Shown in pieces: positions 16,107-31,407 of a DNA stretch of 35,884 nt. Source of the DNA: Thermodesulfobacteriota bacterium (GTDB lineage Bacteria > Desulfobacterota_D > UBA1144 > Nemesobacterales > UBA2774). Every line of letters begins with the position of its first letter. The first letter of the stretch is position 1. The stretch lies in assembly GCA_035455615.1 (NCBI GenBank), contig DATIET010000269.1, positions 1 to 35,884 of the forward strand. The letters run 5' to 3'. Below the pieces are notes generated by a model, which ran no database searches, was not told the DNA's origin, and saw only the letters and a list, made by a program, of their open reading frames with translations. A program made the position numbers and the translations under genes.

Positions 16107-18587
16107 TCAGCCCTGCAGTTTCACTATTCTCTGATTTACGGTATTCGCTTGGCTTTCGTACTTGCCTGAGGCTTTCAGGGTTTCCTCCGCTTGTTTCAGT
16201 AACGGGATGTCCTTCTTCGTCCATTTCCCTGATTCGGTTATCTCGGAAATCCGCTTGGCGAAATCGTCCCTCATGTTCTTCCGATCCGCGGTGAAATCCC
16301 AGTTGTCGAGATAGATGCCGAGCAGCGCCGCGCTTTCCTTGCCGTTGATCGAGGCCGGTATTTCCGCAGCATCCGTTCCGATCCATTTGATAAGCATCTC
16401 GGACTCCTCGTCACCGCCGCTTGCGTAGTGTGCGAGCAGGCGGACCTTGTCCGACTCCTGCGGGTATTTGTATGTGGAGCCTAGAACCATAAGCACGGCG
16501 GTCTTGTCGAGCGGGCTCATATTCCAGAGAGCCTGTCTTGCTTTGATGCGGATTACTATCCTCTTGTTTCTGAGCGTTTCCGCGGCAGCGTCCGCCTCGC
16601 CGCTCGCCGCATGCCCCATATTCCCTAACGCTTCGAGCGCTGCGAGCACGCTGTTCGTATTCTCCGGTTTACTGTCATTCCTGGCTCTTATGAATTCGCC
16701 GAGTCCGGGGGCCTGGTCTGATGCGGACGCGCCCATCCTGCCGAGCGCGGTAGCTGTAATCAGCTGAACCCTTTCGCTCTTATCGTTGAGGAGCGCCGCC
16801 ACATCTGCATTATATTTCCTCGCGGGCTCGCCGAGGCCGAGCAGGGCGTCGACGGCGTTGATCCTCACCTTTTCCGATTCGTCTTTCAACATCGCGGCTA
16901 TCTCGGGTATGTAGGATTCGGCTGGCGGCCCTATCTGACCGAGCGCCCATGCGGCTTCTGCGCGGACGATCTCGTCCGGGTCTTTCAGGAGAGGAGCGAT
17001 TTCAGCCACCTGAGCGTCGGCGCCTGGACCAATCTCCCCCAGGGCTTCGAGCGCCGACGACCTTATGGCCGGGTTTCGGTCCTTCAGGAGCGCCGCCACG
17101 GCGGGGGCCATGGGCCTCCCCTTTTCTCCGAGCTCCCTGAAAAGAAATATCCCAGTACCGCGGAACTTAATTTGCTTCTTCTTCAGTAATCCCACGATCT
17201 CCTCTGACTGGGATTCCGTGAATTCACCTATAGAGGCGAGCGCCAGCGCTGCGTTGGCTCTTATTATTTTATATGGGCCATCGAGTAATCCGATTAATGT
17301 GTCCGTAATCTCCGACCCGCCTCCGGCCATCTCTCTTGAAACGAAGATCGCGTGATACCTGACCGCCTCATTGGTGCTTGTCACCTGCTTCAGGATTTTC
17401 GGGGCATAAGTTTTTCCGGCGTCCCCCATTTCGCTCAGTGTGTTCATCGCCGCAATGCGCACTTCGGGGTAGGGGTCGTTGAGGCGCTCGGCAACCCGAG
17501 GGGCCTTGTCCTTTGCGTTCGTTCCCAGTTCGCCGAGCGCGGCGAGTGCTCCGAGCCTCGCATTGGAGTCGATGTCTTTAAGCAAATACACGACAGCGTC
17601 TATGGTGTCGCTCTGCCCTATCGCCGTCTTGCCTATCGTCGCCGCGGCCTGGTCCCTGACCCTGCTGTTTTTATCTTTCAAAAGCTCTACGACGACGAGC
17701 CTCGAATCCTTCGGTATGTCGCCTATGCTGCCGAGCGCCTTCAAAGCGCTGGTTCTAACGTATACGTTCTTTCTCTTAAGCAGACCTGTGAGCTCGTCTG
17801 CGTAATCCGCAGATACTTTCCCGAACGCGCCCAGGGCAGCGGCCGCTCTCATGACGACGTCCACGTCTTCATCATTAAGGAGTTTCGCGATACCGGCGCT
17901 CTCGGCGGCTCCCGCGGGACCAAGGTGCCCGAGTACCTCCAGCGCCCCGGACCTCGCAGACGGGTTTGTGTCACTCAGCAGTTTCACTATTGCGGGTATC
18001 TGCTGTTCGGCTGCTTTCGGGTTTTTCGAAAGCAGCTCGACTGCGGCCATACTCACCTTGCTGCTGCCATCGCTTAGGAGCGGCACCGCCGCCTCCACCT
18101 GCTCAGGGCTGAGACCGCCTATGTTCCCGAGCGCCTGGAGCGCAGTGTAGCGGATGTTGGGGTCTTCGTCGGTCAGGCTTTTCATGATTACGGGGATCAG
18201 GTCCCTCGAAGACTCTCCCATCCCGCCCGCAGCCGTCAAAGCGGCCCTCCGTATTTGCGGGTTTTCGTCCTTGAGGAGCTGCGGGAGTCCCGGCATATCG
18301 CTCCTTTTCTTCGACTTTGCAAGCTCGTTTATCGCTTCTATCCTGACCTTGGGATCCGGGTCTTTCAGTGCCCGGCTGAGTCCCTCAACCTGCCATGGTT
18401 CGAAAACGGCCGCCGGTTCGATCTCGATCGCGGGCATTTTCTCGGATGCGTAACCCGAAGGAGTGAAAAGGCATGCCGCTGCGATTGATATAGCGAGCAG
18501 CATTATGCGGGCGGGCCGCGGTCGGGGGGTATCCGAAGTATCCGCGCTTCGCTTTTCTGTGTGACTGCAACTGTATGGCAAGCTCAT
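16107..18587 (-). CDS. Exported HEAT-repeat (PBS-lyase HEAT-like) protein
   Basis: 826 aa. AGGGAG lies 7 nt upstream of the ATG at 18587. Signal-like segment RIMLLAISIAAACLFTPSGYA. About 20 tandem units of roughly 31 aa of the form LLKD.dp.VR..A..ALG.iG. Non-repeat C-terminal domain of about 150 aa. Confidence 0.85.
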   Translation of the reverse strand: MSLPYSCSHTEKRSADTSDTPRPRPARIMLLAISIAAACLFTPSGYASEKMPAIEIEPAAVFEPWQVEGLSRALKDPDPKVRIEAINELAKSKKRSDMPGLPQLLKDENPQIRRAALTAAGGMGESSRDLIPVIMKSLTDEDPNIRYTALQALGNIGGLSPEQVEAAVPLLSDGSSKVSMAAVELLSKNPKAAEQQIPAIVKLLSDTNPSARSGALEVLGHLGPAGAAESAGIAKLLNDEDVDVVMRAAAALGAFGKVSADYADELTGLLKRKNVYVRTSALKALGSIGDIPKDSRLVVVELLKDKNSRVRDQAAATIGKTAIGQSDTIDAVVYLLKDIDSNARLGALAALGELGTNAKDKAPRVAERLNDPYPEVRIAAMNTLSEMGDAGKTYAPKILKQVTSTNEAVRYHAIFVSREMAGGGSEITDTLIGLLDGPYKIIRANAALALASIGEFTESQSEEIVGLLKKKQIKFRGTGIFLFRELGEKGRPMAPAVAALLKDRNPAIRSSALEALGEIGPGADAQVAEIAPLLKDPDEIVRAEAAWALGQIGPPAESYIPEIAAMLKDESEKVRINAVDALLGLGEPARKYNADVAALLNDKSERVQLITATALGRMGASASDQAPGLGEFIRARNDSKPENTNSVLAALEALGNMGHAASGEADAAAETLRNKRIVIRIKARQALWNMSPLDKTAVLMVLGSTYKYPQESDKVRLLAHYASGGDEESEMLIKWIGTDAAEIPASINGKESAALLGIYLDNWDFTADRKNMRDDFAKRISEITESGKWTKKDIPLLKQAEETLKASGKYESQANTVNQRIVKLQG

Positions 18588-18913: not shown

Positions 18914-19345
18914 ATGTCCTACGAAAGGGATGATCGGGATTTACTGACGATGTTCAAAGACGGCATAAACAAGGGCCTCAGGGTGATTAATATAAGATCG
19001 AAAGAGGCATACGACACGCTTAAGATCAAAAATACAATCAGGCAGCTCGAGCGCAGGAGGAGGGACGCTGTCTACGATATGGGCGCCTCGGTCTACAGGA
19101 CCTTCACGCACACTGGGAAAATCGTCGAGGATACCGTGGCCGCCAGGTGTGCGGATATAGATAGAATAGAATCCGAGATCGAGGGGTGGCGGGAGGATCT
19201 GAATCTCGTCCATCTGAACGCCCGGAAGGCCCTCGGGAGCGTCAAGGCCCTCGCCAGGCCCAGGGTTGCCGCGTTCTGCGACTGCGGGGCCGAGATAGAG
19301 GAGGGGGCCAGGTTTTGCGGTCAATGCTACAAGGAACTCAATTGA
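18914..19345 (+). CDS. Zinc-ribbon domain protein with coiled-coil N-terminal region
   Basis: 143 aa. GAGGAG 8 nt upstream. C-terminal CDCGAEIEEGARFCGQC (CxC..CxxC) zinc ribbon. Confidence 0.7.
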   Translation: MSYERDDRDLLTMFKDGINKGLRVINIRSKEAYDTLKIKNTIRQLERRRRDAVYDMGASVYRTFTHTGKIVEDTVAARCADIDRIESEIEGWREDLNLVHLNARKALGSVKALARPRVAAFCDCGAEIEEGARFCGQCYKELN

Positions 19346-19492
19346 CACGCCGGGGGTGCGCGTCATGTCTCGATACATCGCGGATTGGACCTGGCCTCCG
19401 GGTACATGTGAGGCAGGGATATAACCCATCAGCCGCGGAGGTTTTCTTAGTTTGTCTTTACTGTCTAAGGCGCAAACATTATTGAAATTATA

Positions 19493-19521
19493 TTGACATT
19501 AAACCGATTACGATATAGAGT
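19493..19521 (+). promoter_or_regulatory. Putative sigma70-type promoter for the riboswitch-led transcript
   Basis: Perfect TTGACA at 19493..19498. TAGAGT follows after a 17-nt spacer (or TATAGA after 15 nt), about 30 nt upstream of the aptamer. Confidence 0.45.
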
Positions 19522-19549
19522 TTGAAAAGATGGGGTCATAAATTTCCAT

Positions 19550-19650
19550 GACCGAAAAGGCAAACCATTCGAAAGGGTGGGACGCAAAGCCACAGGCCTG
19601 AATGCTCCGGGTATGAGCATGATGGCGGCTGGGCCGCCGAAGTCGGGATA
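19550..19650 (+). promoter_or_regulatory. c-di-GMP-I (GEMM-I) riboswitch aptamer
   Basis: 19559..19591 reads GGCAAACCATTCGAAAGGGTGGGACGCAAAGCC. As I recall it, the Vibrio cholerae Vc2 aptamer has GGCAAACCAUUCGAAAGAGUGGGACGCAAAGCC. The single difference turns a U-A pair into a U-G wobble in the GAAA-capped stem. A second stem-loop (ATGCTC-CGGGTAT-GAGCAT) follows. P1 closure is CCGA (19552..19555) with TCGG (19643..19646). Confidence 0.88.
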
Positions 19651-19828
19651 TGCCTTAGTTCTTACTCCTTAACTGTACGTCTAGCTTCAGGCCTAACCTG
19701 CTTATACGGCGTTGCGTAGTCCGTAAATCCTCACCGGGAATGTTTGCCGATATGCCGAAAACGGCTGTATGTCCGGCTCGAAATTCAGGACGCACCGTTT
19801 CCGGGTGGTCGTAAGAGGATAAAGGGAT

Positions 19829-22800
19829 ATGTCGGGCGTAACTGTTTCCGGGTCAGGAAGGGTAAGGGTATCGGCGCGGCTCATAGGCAATGACTGCGAA
19901 TTCTCCTGCGTCGTGCTGGACGGAGCGAAAGGGAGCGGCGGAATCCCGCGCGCAATCCTCGACCAGCTCCGCGACTGTCTCCTCCGAACGGGCATACGTC
20001 TAGACCTCCTCTCCGATTTCACCTTTTTAAACGGACATTACATCGAGCGTTTCGAAGAGCTTGCCGGGGAATGCGTGCTCGGCGTGCTGATACTGGACGG
20101 GCTCGGGCCCGAAGAGCTGTACGAGCTCGGGTATCTGAGGGGCCGCGGAAAATTCATACTCACGTTCGGGAATAAAAATACCGCGGACGCAGATGGGACT
20201 GTTACAAACCTGAGCAGTGCCGCTGGAGAAAAGCCTACCGGCTTCGCTGCATATTCCGGGAAAGAGCAGGATCACGACGATGCGCGCTATTACTGTGACA
20301 AATTCATCAGCCGTCATATGTCTGACATCGCCGGCTCAGGGCCGGACGGGGAAGCCGGTCCGGGCGATCGGCCGGAAACGAGAATCGTGAACGATCTGAG
20401 CCGTGCGCTCCCGGGCGTTATCGACAGGTACGTATCGGATTCGCTCGGGGATGCCGGAAGCGGGGTGGAGGCGGAGAGCCTGCGCGGTTTGGCGCTCAGG
20501 ATATCCGGGTACTTCGCGTCGAGGAGCGGATTCGGAATGTTCGATCTCGACGATATCTACGAAGGGCTTGTATCATGGGAATCCCGGACGGGGCGGAGCG
20601 CCCCTTCGCGCGTGCTCCGCTGTCTCGCTTCACTATACACGGGTCTCGACTCTCCCGGGGCGGGTGAGGACGCCGGGCGCGAGTGCCGGATGAAACTCGT
20701 CTCCATATACGAAAAGATACTCGAGCGGGAAAAACCGGGGCTTCTCGCGGGAGTCACCGCAAAGAGGCTCGCCGACCTGCTCGTCACCCGTCCGTTCGCG
20801 GAAGATGCGGCCGGAGATATCGAGCGAGCGGCCGGGTTATACAAAGAAATCCTGGGTTTTTTTACAAAGGACAAATACCCCCGCGAGTCCGCGTCCGTCC
20901 GCAATAACCTCGGAGCCGCGTTAAACGCGCTTTGCCTCAAGACCGGAGAGCCCGCTTACGCGAGGCAGGCGGTGGAATCCATCGCGGAGTCCCTGTCGTC
21001 TGAAATTTTCAAAAATTCCCCGTACGACCGTGCGCTCTCGTACCGGAACCTCGGCTCCGCATACGCGAGCCTCGCCGTTCACGAAAACCCCCGCGAGAAC
21101 TATCTGAAGGCCGCCGAAGCGCTCGGCATCGCGCTCGACATTTACAAATCATGCGAGCGGCATGACGATATCGCCGAGACGTGCGGAGCCCTCGGGGACG
21201 TATATACGCGGCTAGCCGGGGAGAGCGGCGAGACGCCCTGTTATACGCAGGCATTGAGCTCTTACGAGGAAGCCCTTCGCATATATACGGCCGATAATTT
21301 CCCAGGCGAATACGCGGACTTAATGACTAGGCTCGGCGACGCGCGCGCCTCGCTCGCGCTTAAGCTGGGCGACCCTCATGACTACGAGGAGGCCCTTAAG
21401 GCCTACGGGGAATCGCTCGGCGTTTATACCCGCGAAGGGGCGGCCGCCGAGGCCGACACGCTCAACGTCAGGATAGGCCGTGTCTACAAGGCACTCGGCG
21501 ACAGGGAGGCCGATTCGAATAACACGGACAAGGCGATCGAATATTATGACGAGGCATTACTTTATTACCCTGAAGAAACGGCCCGCGGGGAGCACGCCGC
21601 CTCCGGCAGGAAGCTCGGCGAGGCATTTGAAAGGCTGTATAGAGAGAGCGGGGACGAAACCCATATAAGGAAGGCCATAGCCGCGTATTCGGAAGCGCTC
21701 TACGCCTCGGGTGTCGCCGGCGATCCCGGCACCCGTGATATCGAGCTCGCTCTCCGGGCCCTGTATACGGGGCTTGCGGATCATCTGGAGAGGTCGGGCG
21801 ATCACGAGGGAGCGGCCGAATGCTGCAAGGGGCTTCTCGGTCTCTTAGACCCTCTCGATTACCCGATGGAATACGCGGAAGCCCAGAGGAGGCTGGGCGG
21901 TCTCCTTGCCGGCATACCGAAGCAGTACGAAAGGGCGCTTAATATCGAGCTCGCAATAGATTCGTACAAGGAGGCGCTCGGCTTCTACGTGGAGGAATCC
22001 CATGCGGATGTGAGGAATGAGCTCCGCGGCCTCGTCGGAGGGCTGTTGACGGAGCTCGCCGATTACGAGCCGCGGGACTTGAATAAGAGAATAGGTCTTT
22101 ATCAGGAAGCGCTCGAATATTATCCGTCAGGCCCGTTCCCGTACGAGCACGCCCTTATACAGAAGGCGCTCGGCGGGGCGCATTCCGAATTGAGCTTTGC
22201 GGAAGAGCCTCATCAGAACGCATGCAAGGCTGTGGATTATTATAATAAGGCGCTCGAGTATCTGAGCCTCCGGGAGCACCGCCGGGAATTCGCTTCGGCG
22301 CATTATGATCTGGGTGCGCTCTATGCGCGTCTTTACGATATTTCAGGTGACAGGGAGTTCCTCGGCCGCTCTGTCTCCGCCTACGAGAAGTCGACAGCGG
22401 GTTACACGCCTGAAGAATCGCCTGATGAATACGAGGCGGCCCTGAAAGGGCTCGAAGTGGTGCGGGGTTTGATCTCGGAGACGGAAAGGGCCATGGCCTC
22501 CGGTGACGAGGCCCCGGTCGTGGACGGCCCGGAGGAAGACGAAAAACCGAAAGAGAGGCCCGTGCTCAAGCTCGTCTCGGAAGACGCGCATGAAAGGGAG
22601 GAAGGGTCTGCTCCGGGGTCAGGAGATGAAGACAACGAGATAATAACGCTCGCCCGCGAAGTCGAATTCGACGACCCGGAAGAGGCGGCGGAGTATTTCG
22701 AGGAGAGTCTCAGGCGAATATCGAAAGAGGAATTCCCCGCCGAGTACGCCTCTCTTAAGCTCGGCCTAGGCAGGGTGTACGGGGAGCTCGGGGAAGCTGC

Positions 22801-24370
22801 CGGGGGCGCGAATGACTTCAGAAAAGCGCTCAAGGCATACGAGGACTCCCTCGCGTTCTACACCCGGGAAAATTTCCCTGTCGAGTTCGCCGAGGCCACA
22901 AGCGGCTCAGCCTTCTCGTGGATGCAGCTCGCTGACCAAACGGGGGACATCAAGGGCTACGAGCGCGCCGCCGCCTCATACAACGAGGCGCTCCGCGTCG
23001 TCACCAGGGAGTCAGCTCCGCTCGAGTGGGGAGGGATAAAGGAAAATCTCGGTAACATATACCGCACGCTCGCCCAGATGAAGGGGGAAGCCGGGGAATA
23101 CAGGAAGGCTGTCGCGGAATATAACGAAGCGCTCGAAGTCTTCGGCCCCGGGGAGCACCAGCCCGAATACGGGAGGATTCAAAAAAATATCGGCTTCGTA
23201 TACGGCATTCTTGCGGGGGTGGAAGACCGCACGGAGGATTACACCCGGGCGCTCGACGCGCTGACCAAGGCACTCACTGCTTACGGGCAGGAGGACGCGC
23301 CCGCGGAATACGCTGAGATACATAAGTACTTGGGCATCGCGTATGGCAACATCGCGAGGAAGGACGGCGTGCCGGAATATTACGGGAAGGCGGTAGACGC
23401 CTACGCGAAAGCGCTCTCGGTCATTACGTTCGAGACCTCCCCCAAGGATTACGGGCTCATAAAGAGGAACACGGCTTCCGCATTCGACAGCCTCTCCAAA
23501 TTTTCGGACGCCGCCCAGGACATGATATCCGCGGTTCGGTCCTACGAAGAAGCGCTCGGATACTATACGTGCGAGCGCATGCCCGCCGAGTACGCGTCCA
23601 TATTGAGCGGCCTCGGCAACCTGTACCAGCGTCTCGCCGAGAAGGAGGACGCCTCGGGGAACTGCAGGAATGCCGTCAAGTGCTACGAGCGGCTGCTCAA
23701 GGTCTATAACATAAAGGAATACCCGCTCGAATACGCCGCCACCGAGAACAACCTCGGGATCATCTACAGGACCCTCGCCGAGCAGGAGGAAAAGGGTAAG
23801 AACTGCAAGAGGGCAGTGAACGCGTACAGGGAGGCGCTCAGGGTATATAACGATAAGGAGCACCCGGTACAGTACGGCTCGACGAAGAACAACCTCGGCA
23901 CCGCTTACATGACTCTTGCCGACGTCGAGGATAAGGAGATCAACTGCAGGATGGCGCGGAGCGCGTTCGAGGAGGCGCTCAAGGTGAGGACCATTCAGAA
24001 CTATCCGATGCAGTTCGCTGCGACCCAGAACAACCTGGGTGTCGTCTACAGGATGCTTTCCGAGGTCGAGGACAGGGCGAAGAATTGCAAGAGGGCAGTA
24101 AATGCATACGAGACCGCGCTCATAATTTATACGATCGACAGGTTCCCGATACAGTACGCGACCACGCAGAACAACATCGGCGGGGCCTATACCACGCTCG
24201 CGGAGGAGGAAGACAGGAGCAAAAACTGCGACAAGGCGTCCGAGGCGTACCAGGAAGCGCTCAAGGTGTTTACGAAAAATTCCTACCCGTCGCAGCACGA
24301 GATTGTGAAAGCCAATCTGGAGCTCCTCTGCGAATTCAGCGGGCAGAAGGCTTCGACTGCTGCTCCGTAA
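19829..24370 (+). CDS. Giant repeat protein: N-terminal TIR-like/nucleoside 2-deoxyribosyltransferase-like domain, then two arrays of 47-aa TPR-like repeats split by an acidic linker
   Basis: 1513 aa. AGAGGATAAAGGG precedes the ATG. The N-domain contains CVLGVLILDGLGPEELYELGYLRGRGKFIL (ELGY-type motif). The repeats follow A..Y.EAL.vYT.E.FP.EYA....NLG..Y..LA. No Walker A, signal peptide or TM segment seen. Confidence 0.85.
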   Translation: MSGVTVSGSGRVRVSARLIGNDCEFSCVVLDGAKGSGGIPRAILDQLRDCLLRTGIRLDLLSDFTFLNGHYIERFEELAGECVLGVLILDGLGPEELYELGYLRGRGKFILTFGNKNTADADGTVTNLSSAAGEKPTGFAAYSGKEQDHDDARYYCDKFISRHMSDIAGSGPDGEAGPGDRPETRIVNDLSRALPGVIDRYVSDSLGDAGSGVEAESLRGLALRISGYFASRSGFGMFDLDDIYEGLVSWESRTGRSAPSRVLRCLASLYTGLDSPGAGEDAGRECRMKLVSIYEKILEREKPGLLAGVTAKRLADLLVTRPFAEDAAGDIERAAGLYKEILGFFTKDKYPRESASVRNNLGAALNALCLKTGEPAYARQAVESIAESLSSEIFKNSPYDRALSYRNLGSAYASLAVHENPRENYLKAAEALGIALDIYKSCERHDDIAETCGALGDVYTRLAGESGETPCYTQALSSYEEALRIYTADNFPGEYADLMTRLGDARASLALKLGDPHDYEEALKAYGESLGVYTREGAAAEADTLNVRIGRVYKALGDREADSNNTDKAIEYYDEALLYYPEETARGEHAASGRKLGEAFERLYRESGDETHIRKAIAAYSEALYASGVAGDPGTRDIELALRALYTGLADHLERSGDHEGAAECCKGLLGLLDPLDYPMEYAEAQRRLGGLLAGIPKQYERALNIELAIDSYKEALGFYVEESHADVRNELRGLVGGLLTELADYEPRDLNKRIGLYQEALEYYPSGPFPYEHALIQKALGGAHSELSFAEEPHQNACKAVDYYNKALEYLSLREHRREFASAHYDLGALYARLYDISGDREFLGRSVSAYEKSTAGYTPEESPDEYEAALKGLEVVRGLISETERAMASGDEAPVVDGPEEDEKPKERPVLKLVSEDAHEREEGSAPGSGDEDNEIITLAREVEFDDPEEAAEYFEESLRRISKEEFPAEYASLKLGLGRVYGELGEAAGGANDFRKALKAYEDSLAFYTRENFPVEFAEATSGSAFSWMQLADQTGDIKGYERAAASYNEALRVVTRESAPLEWGGIKENLGNIYRTLAQMKGEAGEYRKAVAEYNEALEVFGPGEHQPEYGRIQKNIGFVYGILAGVEDRTEDYTRALDALTKALTAYGQEDAPAEYAEIHKYLGIAYGNIARKDGVPEYYGKAVDAYAKALSVITFETSPKDYGLIKRNTASAFDSLSKFSDAAQDMISAVRSYEEALGYYTCERMPAEYASILSGLGNLYQRLAEKEDASGNCRNAVKCYERLLKVYNIKEYPLEYAATENNLGIIYRTLAEQEEKGKNCKRAVNAYREALRVYNDKEHPVQYGSTKNNLGTAYMTLADVEDKEINCRMARSAFEEALKVRTIQNYPMQFAATQNNLGVVYRMLSEVEDRAKNCKRAVNAYETALIIYTIDRFPIQYATTQNNIGGAYTTLAEEEDRSKNCDKASEAYQEALKVFTKNSYPSQHEIVKANLELLCEFSGQKASTAAP

Positions 24371-24433: not shown

Positions 24434-24976
24434 TTGAAGACTCCGCTCTACATTCTATTTTCCGTGACCGTGCTTCTCGCGGGCGAACGGGCTTTCGCCG
24501 TGGGGAAGGAAACGCTCGTCGATATAACGGGCGTCGCCGTCGTGGTGGACGAGGTGTCGCCTGCCGCGAGGGAGGACGGGCTCAGTGAGACCGGAATAAA
24601 GGCATTGGTCGAGGATAAGCTCACCAGGGCCAACATCATGGTGCTCGAAGACCGCGAGTGGTTCATGGTCTTCGGGGGCTCATACCTTCTTATCAAGATC
24701 ATAGCCAGCAAGGCCGTGAGTGGAGACAGGTACGCGGTCTACATCGACATGGAGCTCTATCAGACGGTCGTGCTGATGGGGAAGAGGCTCGGGCAGAATA
24801 TCAACACGGCTGCCGCCACGTGGTCCATAGGGAAGCTCTTTTCCTGCAATTCCACAGCGTTGGAGGACTGTGTAGAGGGTACTGTCGCGGAGCTCACAGG
24901 CCTGTTCATCAAGGATTACATAGAGGTAAACACGCTAAAGTGGAAGCAGGAGCAGGAGAGGCTCCAGAAGAAGTGA
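24434..24976 (+). CDS. Small exported protein of unknown function
   Basis: 180 aa. Apparent TTG start 64 nt after the repeat-protein stop. Signal peptide KTPLYILFSVTVLLAGERAFA-VG. Basic, coiled C-terminus (KWKQEQERLQKK). Confidence 0.55.
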   Translation: MKTPLYILFSVTVLLAGERAFAVGKETLVDITGVAVVVDEVSPAAREDGLSETGIKALVEDKLTRANIMVLEDREWFMVFGGSYLLIKIIASKAVSGDRYAVYIDMELYQTVVLMGKRLGQNINTAAATWSIGKLFSCNSTALEDCVEGTVAELTGLFIKDYIEVNTLKWKQEQERLQKK

Positions 24977-27808: not shown

Positions 27809-29320
27809 GTGAGGGTGATGCACAGGTATCTCTTTATATTTTTGACCCTACTCGCCGCATTCCAGGCGTCGGCAGAGGAGGATGTCCGCGTGAACGAGAT
27901 GTTCGATTACGCATTCTCCGAGAACGCCGCCACGGGGCAGAAGCAGGAGGAAGGGAAGGACGGGGAATTCGTCACTGGCGAGGAGGGGAGGGAGCGCCTC
28001 GGCTTAAACGCCTTCCTCCGCGATTCCGCCATAATGTACGGGGGCCTCTGGGCGTCCAGGTTTTTCTACGTAAGGAACAAGAACAGCAGGATATTCGATA
28101 CGTCCTTTTCCAAATGGTGGCACAACATCACGCAGTGGCCGGAATGGGACGACGGGGATTCGTTCTTCACCAACTGGGTCACGCACCCCACGATAGGAGC
28201 GGTGGAGTATCTCTTCTACAGGCAGATGGGGCACGGCTACCTCGTTTCCGCCCTGGGCGTGGTGCTACAGAGCACGCTCTTCGAGTACACGATCGAGGGC
28301 ACGGTCGAAGTCCCTTCGCTCGTCGACCTCGTATCGACGCCGCTCGTCGGCGTCCCGATGGGGTTCGCGCTCGAGAAGTCCTCCGACTGGCTCGTATCCA
28401 CGGACTTCGTTCCGGCGAAGATACTCGGCCACATTCTTAACCCCATGAGGAACTTCATCTACGAGAGACAGGTCGGCATATACAACCCCTTCTCGAAGAC
28501 GTTCTTTTCGGTGACCGGGCCTATAGTGTTCACGCCTAATAAGGACATCGCTATCGACCTCGCGTATCCATACTTCCTCGAGGAACCGCTCCCGATGGGC
28601 AGGTTCAGGGCGGACCTCGAGATCCTCAACCTCAAGAAGAAAAACAGCGGACAGTTCATATTCTATTCGCTCCGGGCCGACGTACCTTCCAAGAGCGGGC
28701 TCTGGGGCGTCTATGTGAAAATAGCGCAGTCCGGGGTGAACTCGGTCGTTATAAACGGCGAAGAAGTGAGGGACGGGTTCGAGTTCGCGAACGTGCTCGC
28801 GGGCGGGAAGGCCATCCTCTGGAAGTCCCACAATTCGGCAATCTCCGGAGGCGTCGAGCTGATATTGCCGACCTCTTACAAGGACAACATAGACAGGCTT
28901 TCGACGGTCACGATGTTCAAAAGGAACTTCCCTATAAATTTGCAGAAGGCCTGGACCGTGACCCCGTACGTGACCGCGGCCGCGTGGAAAGGGATATTCA
29001 ACGTGCAGGCGATGGCTTCGACGGACGTTGTGTTTAACGCAGGGGAGCTCGAAGGGAACTCTGCCGAGTGGAGGCTCAATTACGGGGCCTCGGCCGGGGC
29101 GAACTTCCCGGTGATCGCGTCCCCCGTGCTCTACGCGGAGTTCGGCGCGTACACGACCCTCACGGCCGACACGTTTCAGAAGAACGGCATGTTCATGACG
29201 TCGGGCGTGAGGTTCGGGAGGAAGTTCAGCCCGGGCTTCGCGATGCAGCTCCCGGTTTACGGAGCGGACAGAGACATTGACAGGTTCAGCTATATGTTCG
29301 ACTTCCAGATAAGGTTCTAG
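27809..29320 (+). CDS. Exported protein, DUF3943-like N-terminal domain plus putative C-terminal beta-barrel (paralog 1)
   Basis: 503 aa. Signal peptide LFIFLTLLAAFQASA. Conserved block WDDGDSFFTNWVTHPTIGAVEYLFYRQMGHGY...QSTLFEYTIEG...PSLVDLVSTPLVGVPMG. Alternating-hydrophobicity C-terminal half ends in FDFQIRF. The start is GTG 27809 or ATG 27818. Confidence 0.75.
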   Translation: MRVMHRYLFIFLTLLAAFQASAEEDVRVNEMFDYAFSENAATGQKQEEGKDGEFVTGEEGRERLGLNAFLRDSAIMYGGLWASRFFYVRNKNSRIFDTSFSKWWHNITQWPEWDDGDSFFTNWVTHPTIGAVEYLFYRQMGHGYLVSALGVVLQSTLFEYTIEGTVEVPSLVDLVSTPLVGVPMGFALEKSSDWLVSTDFVPAKILGHILNPMRNFIYERQVGIYNPFSKTFFSVTGPIVFTPNKDIAIDLAYPYFLEEPLPMGRFRADLEILNLKKKNSGQFIFYSLRADVPSKSGLWGVYVKIAQSGVNSVVINGEEVRDGFEFANVLAGGKAILWKSHNSAISGGVELILPTSYKDNIDRLSTVTMFKRNFPINLQKAWTVTPYVTAAAWKGIFNVQAMASTDVVFNAGELEGNSAEWRLNYGASAGANFPVIASPVLYAEFGAYTTLTADTFQKNGMFMTSGVRFGRKFSPGFAMQLPVYGADRDIDRFSYMFDFQIRF

Positions 29321-29892: not shown

Positions 29893-31407
29893 ATGTGGTT
29901 GAAGGCGACAATCGTATGTACCGCTTTACTCATGATTTTTCAGCTCGTCCCTGCCTCGGCCGAGGATAGTCCCTACCTTTACGCGGCCGGGGAATCCGTC
30001 ACTCCCCACGAACCTGACGACGCCGTATTGCCCGTTGAGCCTCCAGCCGGCGAGGAGCCCGCTCCCAAACCCAACCTGAGGCCGCCCGGATTCAAGACCT
30101 ACATGGAAGACACGACCATCTGGTACGGCGCGCAGTGGGCGGCGAGGCTCTGGTGGGTGAGGGACAAGAACCTCAAGATCTTCGACGGAGGGTTCCACAC
30201 GTTCTGGAGCAACCTGACGAGCGAGCCGCTTTGGGACGACGAGGACGATTTCGTCGTCAACTGGGTGCTCCACCCGTTCTTCGGCATGCTCTCCTACCAG
30301 TTCTACAGGGCGAGGGGACACAGCGTCTGGGCATCGGCCCTGGGCTCGGTCATACAGAGCACGCTCTTCGAATACGGAATCGAGGGGTGGGCGGTCAGGC
30401 CCTCTGGCCTCGATCTCATCGTTACCCCTGCCCTCGGCGTACCGCTCGGATGGACGATGGAGCAGTTCTCCGAATGGCTGATACAGCAGGACTCCAAGGT
30501 CGCCAGGGTCGCTGCGTACGTCACGAACCCGACGAGGGTCTTCGTCAAGGACACACAGTTCGGCCTCATCAACCCCGTAACGGGCGCGTTCCAGTACCGG
30601 GGGCAGTTCACGATATCAACGACGAAGGGCAAGGCGCTCGAGCTCGGTTACCCGAAATTCTTCGAGCCCCCGCTCCCGCTCGGCAGGGTGGGGATAGACC
30701 TCGAACTTATCACGCTCGAGAAGGCGCTCGGCGGGGAGTTCATACTATATCCGATGAGGCTCGAGTTCCCGTCCGAGAGCAATTACTGGGGGGTCTACAC
30801 GGACATACCGTATGGCGGAACGAACAATGTGACCGACGGGGATACGGACATAAGGGACGGATACGAGTTCGGGAACCTGATGGTCGGGGTGAAATCGCTC
30901 CTGGCGAAATCGAAGGACTTCGCCCTGGGCGCTGGGCTCGAGGTTTATTTCCCGACCTCGTTCACCGACGACCAGGACAGGCTAGCGCAGATTATAAAAT
31001 ACAGAAGGGACTTCCAGATGTACCTCTACAAGGCGACGACCGTTTCGCCGTACGTCACGGCGGGGGCGTGGAGAGGGCCTTTCAGCGTGCAGGGCGCGCT
31101 CGGCTCGGACTTCATTTTCAACGCCGAGGAATTCGCTGGGCAGGACTTCGAGTTCAGGATCAACTACCACGCGGCCGCGGGGCTGAACGTCCCCATGACG
31201 GGGTCGCCGATCCTGTACTGCGAATTCGATGGGTACTCGATCACGACGTACGACGGCGCGGGAGGGGGCACGGACCTGTTCCTCACTCCGGGCATAAGGT
31301 TCGGGAAAAAGTACAGCCCTGGCTTCTCGGCCCAGCTCCCGGTCTACGGGCCTACGAAGGACATCGCCGACGCCGATTTCGTGTTCGACTTCCAGCTCCG
31401 GGTCTGA
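29893..31407 (+). CDS. Exported protein, DUF3943-like N-terminal domain plus putative C-terminal beta-barrel (paralog 2)
   Basis: 504 aa. Alignable end to end with 27809..29320 (WDDEDDFVVNWVLHPFFGMLSYQFYRARGH, QSTLFEYGIEG, SPYVTAGAWRGPFSVQ, SPGFSAQLPVYG). Ends in FDFQLRV. AAGGGAGG abuts the ATG, so the TTG at 29899 is an alternative start. Confidence 0.75.
   Translation: MWLKATIVCTALLMIFQLVPASAEDSPYLYAAGESVTPHEPDDAVLPVEPPAGEEPAPKPNLRPPGFKTYMEDTTIWYGAQWAARLWWVRDKNLKIFDGGFHTFWSNLTSEPLWDDEDDFVVNWVLHPFFGMLSYQFYRARGHSVWASALGSVIQSTLFEYGIEGWAVRPSGLDLIVTPALGVPLGWTMEQFSEWLIQQDSKVARVAAYVTNPTRVFVKDTQFGLINPVTGAFQYRGQFTISTTKGKALELGYPKFFEPPLPLGRVGIDLELITLEKALGGEFILYPMRLEFPSESNYWGVYTDIPYGGTNNVTDGDTDIRDGYEFGNLMVGVKSLLAKSKDFALGAGLEVYFPTSFTDDQDRLAQIIKYRRDFQMYLYKATTVSPYVTAGAWRGPFSVQGALGSDFIFNAEEFAGQDFEFRINYHAAAGLNVPMTGSPILYCEFDGYSITTYDGAGGGTDLFLTPGIRFGKKYSPGFSAQLPVYGPTKDIADADFVFDFQLRV

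Follow-up and report, generated by a model that had tools for sequence, protein, structure and literature searches.

The intergenic region between positions 19346 and 19828 raises three questions, i.e. whether it carries a class-I (GEMM-I) c-di-GMP riboswitch aptamer, which ligand the pocket would accept, and how such an aptamer could control the gene that follows. We analysed the whole stretch of 35,884 nucleotides, termed the window, which derives from a Dadabacteria-like member of the Thermodesulfobacteriota. The original prediction had placed the aptamer in a 480-nt intergenic region, and the gap between the preceding ORF (18914..19345) and the ATG at 19829 measures 483 nt. The window surroundings are ordinary chromosome, with genes for cytochrome oxidase, BamA, HisRS, a glycosyltransferase, and a PAS-GAF histidine kinase with a LuxR-type regulator; a search of the window for GGDEF, EAL, HD-GYP or PilZ genes found none. 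Two adjoining paralogous proteins of about 500 aa (27809..29320 and 29893..31407, + strand) contain a DUF3943 domain each. The signals that frame the leader are the following:

19493..19521, + strand: sigma-70-type promoter, TTGACA at 19493-98, 17-nt spacer, TAGAGT at 19516-21 (10 of 12 matches)
19815-20, + strand: Shine-Dalgarno (SD) motif GAGGAU (sequence and alignment of eight leaders)
19829-31, + strand: start codon ATG (ORF list and alignment of eight leaders)

The −35 hexamer is located 52-57 nt 5′ of the aptamer, where a TTGACA promoter at a distance of about 55 nt had been anticipated, and transcription would start near 19528. This hexamer, an A/T-rich block upstream of it and the −10 region are kept across all orthologous loci. 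Transcripts from this conserved promoter (19493..19521) would carry the aptamer in the 5′ portion of a leader of about 300 nt. Its placement is that of a cis-regulatory element, in the 5′-UTR and on the same strand as the downstream gene, and the same arrangement was found in seven other loci.

A scan of the whole window with Rfam 15 returned a single match, at 19550..19642 (+ strand, 66.1 bits, E 1.2e-13), which covers the RF03167 model over its full length (1-80 of 80) and is far beyond chance. RF03167 and RF01051 both belong to clan CL00126, of which only the best-scoring member is displayed. The original prediction, which had named RF01051, was right about the c-di-GMP-I clan, given 66.1 bits against a gathering score of 59, but the top-scoring Rfam model is RF03167. 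The predicted 33-mer core, GGCAAACCATTCGAAAGGGTGGGACGCAAAGCC, is present at 19559..19591; relative to the Vc2 core it presumably carries one A-to-G change that converts a U-A pair to U-G. The predicted two-helix architecture was recovered as a full clan match with a P1-P2-P3 junction, composed of the following elements:

19549..19645, + strand: c-di-GMP-I aptamer (cmscan, 66.1 bits; structure with 97.1% of cells paired in seven sequences)
19549-54 with 19638-45, + strand: P1 (family architecture)
19555-59, + strand: J1/2, AAAAG, ending in the G20 equivalent at 19559
19560-85, + strand: P2, GAAA loop at 19571-74, C44 equivalent at 19583
19588-19635, + strand: P3, G83 equivalent at 19628
G19636 and C19637, + strand: J3/1, C19637 being the C92 equivalent

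The GAAA tetraloop at 19571-74 is invariant. J1/2 has 5 nt, one fewer than in the commonest family arrangement, and thus represents a minority state. P3 contains a 3x3 internal loop, UGA/GAU (UCG/AGU and UUU/UAU in orthologues), and not the CCUAAG/UAUGG receptor; two compensatory pairs in P3 (A-U to G-C and U-A to C-G) occur among the orthologues. For P1, the preferred register has the inner pairs C19553-G19639 and G19554-C19638, then a bulge of A19640/A19641, and the outer pairs C19552-G19642, A19551-U19643, G19550-C19644 and U19549.G19645, with 100% of the cells paired in seven sequences. A CCGA/TCGG pairing had been predicted instead; the RNAfold MFE structure does pick that register, but it would stretch J3/1 to 7 nt, and the family architecture is better fitted by the preferred one. 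Covariation does not separate the two registers because all positions concerned are invariant.

Several short elements flank P1. A tiny ORF, ATG CCT TAG (19650..19658), directly follows it; A.ATG is invariant in eight leaders, while the length and content of the ORF vary, and the conservation more likely reflects pairing of the AUG with CAU (19537-39) in an extended P1. Two direct repeats, exact or near-exact, were noticed, GGGATATG at 19645..19652 and 19824..19831, and GATATGCC at 19647..19654 and 19749..19756. The GUCGGG/GGGAUAUG repeat at the P1 flank and the start codon was examined as a possible mimic of P1 and then dismissed, since the orthologues differ in their second codon (UCG, CCG, CUA, GCA, UUA).

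Only a handful of homologues were found for the first 580 residues of the downstream protein, one from a Candidatus Dadabacteria MAG (90% identity), one from an ENA metagenome (80%), and two from Thermodesulfobacteriota MAGs (45-51%). Dadabacteria ranks as a class of the Thermodesulfobacteriota. From the contigs of the homologues and a metagenome scan for CCATGACCGAAAAGGCAAACC, we gathered seven further independent leaders (L121, L122, L123, L125, L128, L129, and L131; L127 is nearly identical to L121), so that eight sequences, four of them closely related, were compared in all. Two other sequences, L126 and L130, were chance matches of the scan. The aptamer lies upstream of the orthologues P0001, P0002, P0004, and P0006, and in 7/7 further leaders its distance to the start codon of the orthologue is unchanged. 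Neighbouring genes are also common to L121 and L122. An 826-aa all-HEAT-repeat protein is encoded just upstream (16107..18587, − strand), followed by the 143-aa protein of the preceding ORF (18914..19345, + strand), which has a C-terminal zinc ribbon; both keep their positions in these two loci.

Among the eight sequences, 56 of the 58 positions of 19532-19589 are invariant, with proteins down to 47% identical. In the most diverged leaders compared (L123, L128, and L129), the aptamer and the 5′ hairpin described below are 90-91% identical, the rest of the leader 53-68%, and the first part of the coding sequence 58-75%. Variation within the aptamer is confined to P3, except for a G-to-A change in L123 at position 19647, on the 3′ margin of the block that was compared. 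The gene behind this conserved leader and its neighbour are as follows:

19829..24370, + strand: putatively regulated TPR-protein gene, 1513 aa (Pfam TPR_12, 6.5e-24; TPR-S, 9e-15)
24434..24976, + strand: 180-aa ORF, 64 nt downstream of the TPR gene, no family match

The 1513-aa protein consists of an uncharacterised N-terminal region of about 400 aa and long TPR arrays, with TPR matches from about residue 430. Its first 374 residues matched no Pfam family even at E 5, a comparison of the protein with NCBIfam gave weak TPR-region matches only and none near a curated cutoff, and an exact-protein look-up of this protein and the glycosyltransferase returned no match. An AlphaFold2 model of residues 1-417, built from a shallow alignment, is confident only in the helical repeats; residues 1-188 have pLDDT values below 50 and a beta-alpha-beta pattern. 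Residues 1-125 (19829..20200) form a strongly conserved N-terminal module (e.g. LNGHYIERFEELA...VLGVLILDGLGPEELYELGYLRGRGKFIL), likewise beta-alpha-beta and without a Pfam family, perhaps a small Rossmann/TIR-like domain to which TPR-S arrays are fused. The 180-aa ORF is probably co-transcribed with the TPR gene, and a 158-aa gene occupies the equivalent position in the syntenic locus L121. On the ENA contig of L121 (6001..10678), the TPR orthologue is called as five consecutive ORFs of 489, 134, 126, 124, and 519 aa, which indicates frameshifts, either from assembly errors or in a pseudogene.

The choice of ligand depends on three positions. The original prediction had left the G20 equivalent to be read from an alignment, and in the cmscan alignment it is G19559, which is unpaired and immediately precedes the G19560-C19585 pair on the 5′ side; against the RF01051 consensus, A47 corresponds to A19586 and C92 to C19637. 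All three are invariant in the eight sequences, as are the two interhelix partners, C19583, part of the GAC bulge in P2, and G19628, part of a two-nucleotide bulge in the P3 3′ strand, which would form the C19583-G19628 pair. G20, A47, and C92 all contact the ligand, G20 reading one guanine via its Hoogsteen face and C92 pairing with the other, and c-AMP-GMP riboswitches have an A at position 20 (PMC6140456, PMC5888326, PMC4744006). Wild-type G20 discriminates against cGAMP (about 10 uM vs pM; PMC6140456). The G20/A47/C92 configuration, with G and not A at position 20, predicts c-di-GMP and not cGAMP as the ligand, a prediction that is very probably right. The AAAAGG leader was found before GCAAACC as had been read by eye; its deviation from ACAGGG in Vc2 is of no concern, because the RF01051 consensus itself reads AAaGGCAAAcc.

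The family label has to be reconciled with this pocket. When gathering thresholds were applied, a second clan model also passed its own threshold but was masked by clan competition; it is most likely RF01051 (gathering score 35), which scores below 66.1 bits on the window aptamer and below 54 bits on the truncated core. Rescans of small sub-ranges in E-value mode likewise displayed RF03167 alone. The consensus core reads GGGACGCGAAgCc in RF03167 and gggGACGCAAAgCc in RF01051, and within the core the two lines differ only after GACGC, with a G in RF03167 and an A in RF01051, at the equivalent of Vc2 A47. The name c-di-GMP-I-GGC of RF03167 reportedly goes back to Weinberg and colleagues, in PNAS in 2017, and is said to denote positions 20/47/92. 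The defining G (consensus GGGACGCGAA) is missing from the window, which reads GGGACGCAAA with A19586, and all seven orthologues also have an A.

For comparison, a genome-wide pattern scan (AAAGGCAAACC..GGGACGCRAAGCCAC, either purine allowed at position 47) yielded 123 aptamers from many phyla. Position 47 was an A in 123/123, and a G before C92, as in the window, was the majority state (69/123). As a control, cmscan was run on 18 of these loci, holding 21 aptamers, of which 11 were labelled RF01051 (70-92 bits) and 10 RF03167 (66-75 bits). The CCUAA(G/A) tetraloop-receptor motif in P3 is present in 11/11 of the former and absent from 9/10 of the latter, showing that the label tracks the P3 architecture and not the pocket. 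With 10/21 of the A47 control aptamers labelled RF03167, the label is not diagnostic, and to judge from the sequence it is best understood in the window as a model cross-hit and not as a sign of altered specificity. The RF03167-labelled control aptamers come from unrelated phyla (L005, L017, L022, L025, L039, L046, L056, L079, and L115). These ten A47-core aptamers pass the RF03167 gathering score and outscore RF01051, so that automated annotation will over-call the GGC variant. Other genomes (L019, L043, L046, L057, and L120) contain two GEMM-I aptamers 150-900 nt apart, i.e. tandem or duplicated riboswitches.

Other explanations of the match have to be weighed against these results. A true c-di-GMP-I-GGC member, whose altered pocket may bind a different ligand, would be suggested by RF03167 ranking first among the clan models, both in the window (66.1 bits against a gathering score of 59) and in each of the seven orthologues, by the common flanks AAAAGG, GCCAC, and GC-CGAAG, and by a model without the expectation of a canonical P3 receptor. 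The sole separating core position is, however, an A throughout, and the same label fell on ten of the 21 A47 control aptamers, nine of these ten being without the CUAAG receptor that RF01051 expects, which leaves true membership highly improbable. Even less credit can be given to a c-AMP-GMP (3′3′-cGAMP, GEMM-Ib) riboswitch. Such riboswitches share the same architecture, their first description came from Geobacter, which is a related lineage, and to the eye the A-rich J1/2 (AAAAG) might suggest one; but the base 5′ of the first P2 pair is G19559, invariant in eight sequences, where GEMM-Ib has an A, and the discrimination of wild-type G20 against cGAMP also speaks against it. The non-canonical P3 receptor and a J1/2 that is one nucleotide short would be compatible with a decayed, non-functional relic or a chance match, a reading whose probability is negligible in view of the E value of 1e-13, the invariance of 56/58 positions despite proteins down to 47% identity, and the conserved placement ahead of the same gene. 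That the element is a c-di-GMP-I aptamer is thus almost certain, and the explanation as a whole, a class-I (GEMM-I) c-di-GMP riboswitch aptamer with a canonical pocket, is probable; this overall judgement weights identity and ligand most heavily.

The remaining question is the expression platform, which the original prediction had described as undefined and without an obvious intrinsic terminator. The latter point stands, as the + strand of 19300..19900 yielded 0 sites resembling a terminator (a hairpin with a U-run); the former is now partly resolved by a proposed long-range anti-aptamer with an overlapping anti-SD. The elements involved upstream of the anti-SD are as follows:

19534..19553, + strand: 5′ leader hairpin GGUCAU-N8-AUGACC, 19534-39 paired with 19548-53 (RNAalifold)
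19648..19696, + strand: pyrimidine-rich spacer, containing UUCAGGCCU at 19686-94
19697..19748, + strand: anti-aptamer (switching) region (RNAalifold consensus, duplex energies)

All six pairs of the 5′ hairpin are identical in seven sequences, the stem is invariant in eight, and the hairpin folds alone at −7.5 kcal/mol. Its 3′ arm (19548-53) overlaps the P1 5′ strand (19549-54), so that hairpin and P1 are mutually exclusive. The hairpin loop, AAAUUUCC, is almost invariant, with two variable positions. A terminator-like site (stem and CCATCTTTTC) was flagged on the minus strand at 19553..19534; it is merely the 5′ hairpin read in reverse and was rejected because no minus-strand gene ends nearby. 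In the spacer, UUCAGGCCU is perfectly complementary over 9 nt to the P3 5′ strand AGGCCUGAA (19594-19602). The spacer composition is C 0.28, G 0.17, and U 0.35 (alignment columns 121-192, about 19648-19712), with more C than G in 7/7 leaders of alignment A3.

Applied to the full leader, RNAalifold returned an alternative fold instead of the aptamer. In this fold, 19697-19710 pairs with GCCGAAG.CGGG at 19636-47 (C92 and the P1 3′ strand), UGCGU at 19713-17 with ACGCA at 19582-86 (C44 and A47), CUCACC at 19730-35 with GGUGGG at 19576-81 (P2), and GAAUGUUUGCC at 19738-48 with GGCAAACCAUUC at 19559-70 (G20 and the P2 5′ strand), so that each of G20, A47, and C92 forms a Watson-Crick pair with downstream leader sequence. 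Pairing of the aptamer 5′ half with the downstream segment has duplex energies of −27 to −30 kcal/mol in each of seven leaders, with z values of −2.9 to −4.3 against dinucleotide shuffles (0-4 of 300 shuffles as good). The anti-aptamer helices pair in 93% of the cells, compared with 37-46% when the partners are slid by 1-3 columns. Changes on the downstream side are mostly between G-C and G-U, and no classical covariation is visible because the aptamer side is invariant. Enforcing the aptamer costs the leader 7-17 kcal/mol relative to unconstrained folding, implying that ligand capture must be co-transcriptional and precede synthesis of the competitor; the orthologues do not share one full-length MFE fold.

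These analyses point to a long-range expression platform with two mutually exclusive leader folds, for which there is computational support. Fold A has P1 closing the aptamer. In fold B, the 5′ hairpin (19534-53) would take the P1 5′ strand, and segments of 19697-19748 would pair with the P1 3′ strand, C92, A47, both P2 strands, and G20, which would dismantle the pocket. Caught during transcription, c-di-GMP would lock fold A ahead of the synthesis of the competitor, which begins about 50 nt and ends about 100 nt downstream of the aptamer 3′ end. We regard the competition between folds A and B as rather likely. A three-state, kinetically gated switch, in which the 5′ hairpin competes for P1 and a distal antisense copy of the aptamer of about 50 nt, pairing with G20, A47, C92 and both P2 strands, also carries the anti-SD, can be suggested only tentatively. 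Several simultaneous pairing partners would explain why 56/58 positions (19532-19589) are frozen with proteins about 50% identical.

For the output, two elements near the ribosome-binding site (RBS) are relevant:

19727..19732, + strand: candidate anti-SD AUCCUC, complementary to GAGGAU at 19815-20
19755-64 with 19795-19804, + strand: conserved stem, CCG.AAACGG with CCGUUU.CGG (RNAalifold)

The candidate anti-SD shares 19730-32 with the CUCACC anti-P2 segment, so that pairing with the aptamer precludes pairing with the SD motif and vice versa. In the eight-sequence alignment, 81% of the cells of the anti-SD/SD helix pair, compared with 38-56% for slid partners; two of the six pairs show a compensatory change, and the covariation score is 0.286 vs 0.146 +/- 0.035, with 0/500 shuffles as high. 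At column 212 (window 19731), a U-to-C change in L123, L129, and L131 converts a G.U with the aptamer to G-C, and its SD partner changes from A to G in the same three leaders. In 7/7 leaders, the RBS region has the anti-SD segment (columns about 191-235) as its first- or second-ranked partner. The 19755..19804 stem encloses a small hairpin and sits between anti-SD and SD; stem and SD helix together have 89.5% of the cells paired and three compensatory pairs (one in the stem), and their covariation score was reached by 0/500 shuffles. A further short direct repeat, exact or near-exact (ACCGTTTCCGGGT/ACTGTTTCCGGGT, 19794..19806 and 19841..19853), could give the 19755-64 strand an alternative partner within the ORF.

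Energy-based analyses gave no significant support for this pairing. The anti-SD/SD duplexes of seven leaders had non-significant z-scores of −0.4 to −1.8, and +0.5 for L123, and a permutation test of cognate vs non-cognate anti-SD/SD pairs was not significant (28/120). Whole-leader MFE and partition-function folding, with the aptamer enforced or free, gave RBS accessibility changes that are inconsistent among orthologues. A restricted two-state model predicted a lower RBS accessibility in the bound state in 6/7 sequences, but the drop was no larger than with shuffled upstream sequence; because this control shows it to be non-specific, the model was not counted as support.

In fold A, the released AUCCUC (19727-32) would pair with GAGGAU (19815-20) across the 19755-19804 stem, a step with moderate support, and masking of the RBS would let c-di-GMP repress translation. 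Among the possible outputs this translational OFF response is the most likely, although we put it forward with reserve. The main rival to translational repression is Rho-dependent termination or control of mRNA stability: aptamer and fold competition would be the same, with an output through Rho-dependent termination, mRNA decay or an ON switch instead of RBS masking. It would be in line with a leader that has no intrinsic terminator and a pyrimidine-rich spacer with C above G in 7/7 A3 leaders, with an invariant 5′ hairpin at the predicted 5′ end of the transcript, where stem-loops affect decay, and with the weak statistics of RBS masking. The spacer is, however, poorly conserved and 24 alignment columns shorter in L129 and L131, compensatory changes occur in the anti-SD/SD columns, and anti-SD and anti-aptamer overlap. 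A class-I precedent also exists in Vc2, which masks a distant RBS according to what is cited from Inuzuka et al. 2018 (in PMC11705072). On balance, an output other than RBS masking is considered somewhat less likely, and repression of translation by c-di-GMP is retained as the preferred reading.

The sensor is standard and belongs to an already well-known class; only the long downstream switching region is somewhat unusual. With Vc2 and RF01051 it shares the three-helix junction, the GAAA-capped P2, the GGCAAACC...GGGACGCAAAGCC core, the G20/A47/C92 pocket, the predicted C44-G83 interhelix pair and the 5′-UTR location. It differs from RF01051 by its 5-nt J1/2, its non-canonical receptor loop in P3 and the higher score of RF03167, and from characterised RF01051 examples by its host, Dadabacteria/Thermodesulfobacteriota MAGs, and its target, a giant TPR protein. 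The proposed translational OFF mechanism resembles that of Vc2 (Inuzuka et al. 2018, Genes Cells 23:435, as cited in PMC11705072 and PMC11218506), as far as these citations describe it, in having a c-di-GMP-I aptamer, no terminator and a distant RBS. Features of the window are an anti-SD about 85 nt downstream of the aptamer that doubles as the anti-P2 strand, and a separate 5′ hairpin competing for P1. The c-di-GMP-I riboswitch Bc1 of Bacillus thuringiensis likewise couples its class-I aptamer to an expression platform of unusual length, but this contains two rho-independent terminators (PMC11218506), in contrast to none in the window.

For the family, the results mean that the RF03167 label c-di-GMP-I-GGC is no proof of a variant pocket and that position 47 must be read directly, because about half of the sampled canonical-core aptamers carry this label. 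The leader would be a compact natural example for the study of a distal anti-aptamer and a 5′ hairpin gating a putative terminator-less translational riboswitch. For the organism, the analysis predicts a gene responsive to c-di-GMP in an uncultured lineage about which little is known (Candidatus Dadabacteria, Thermodesulfobacteriota), and the riboswitch link offers a handle on the biology of a giant TPR protein with an uncharacterised N-terminal domain.
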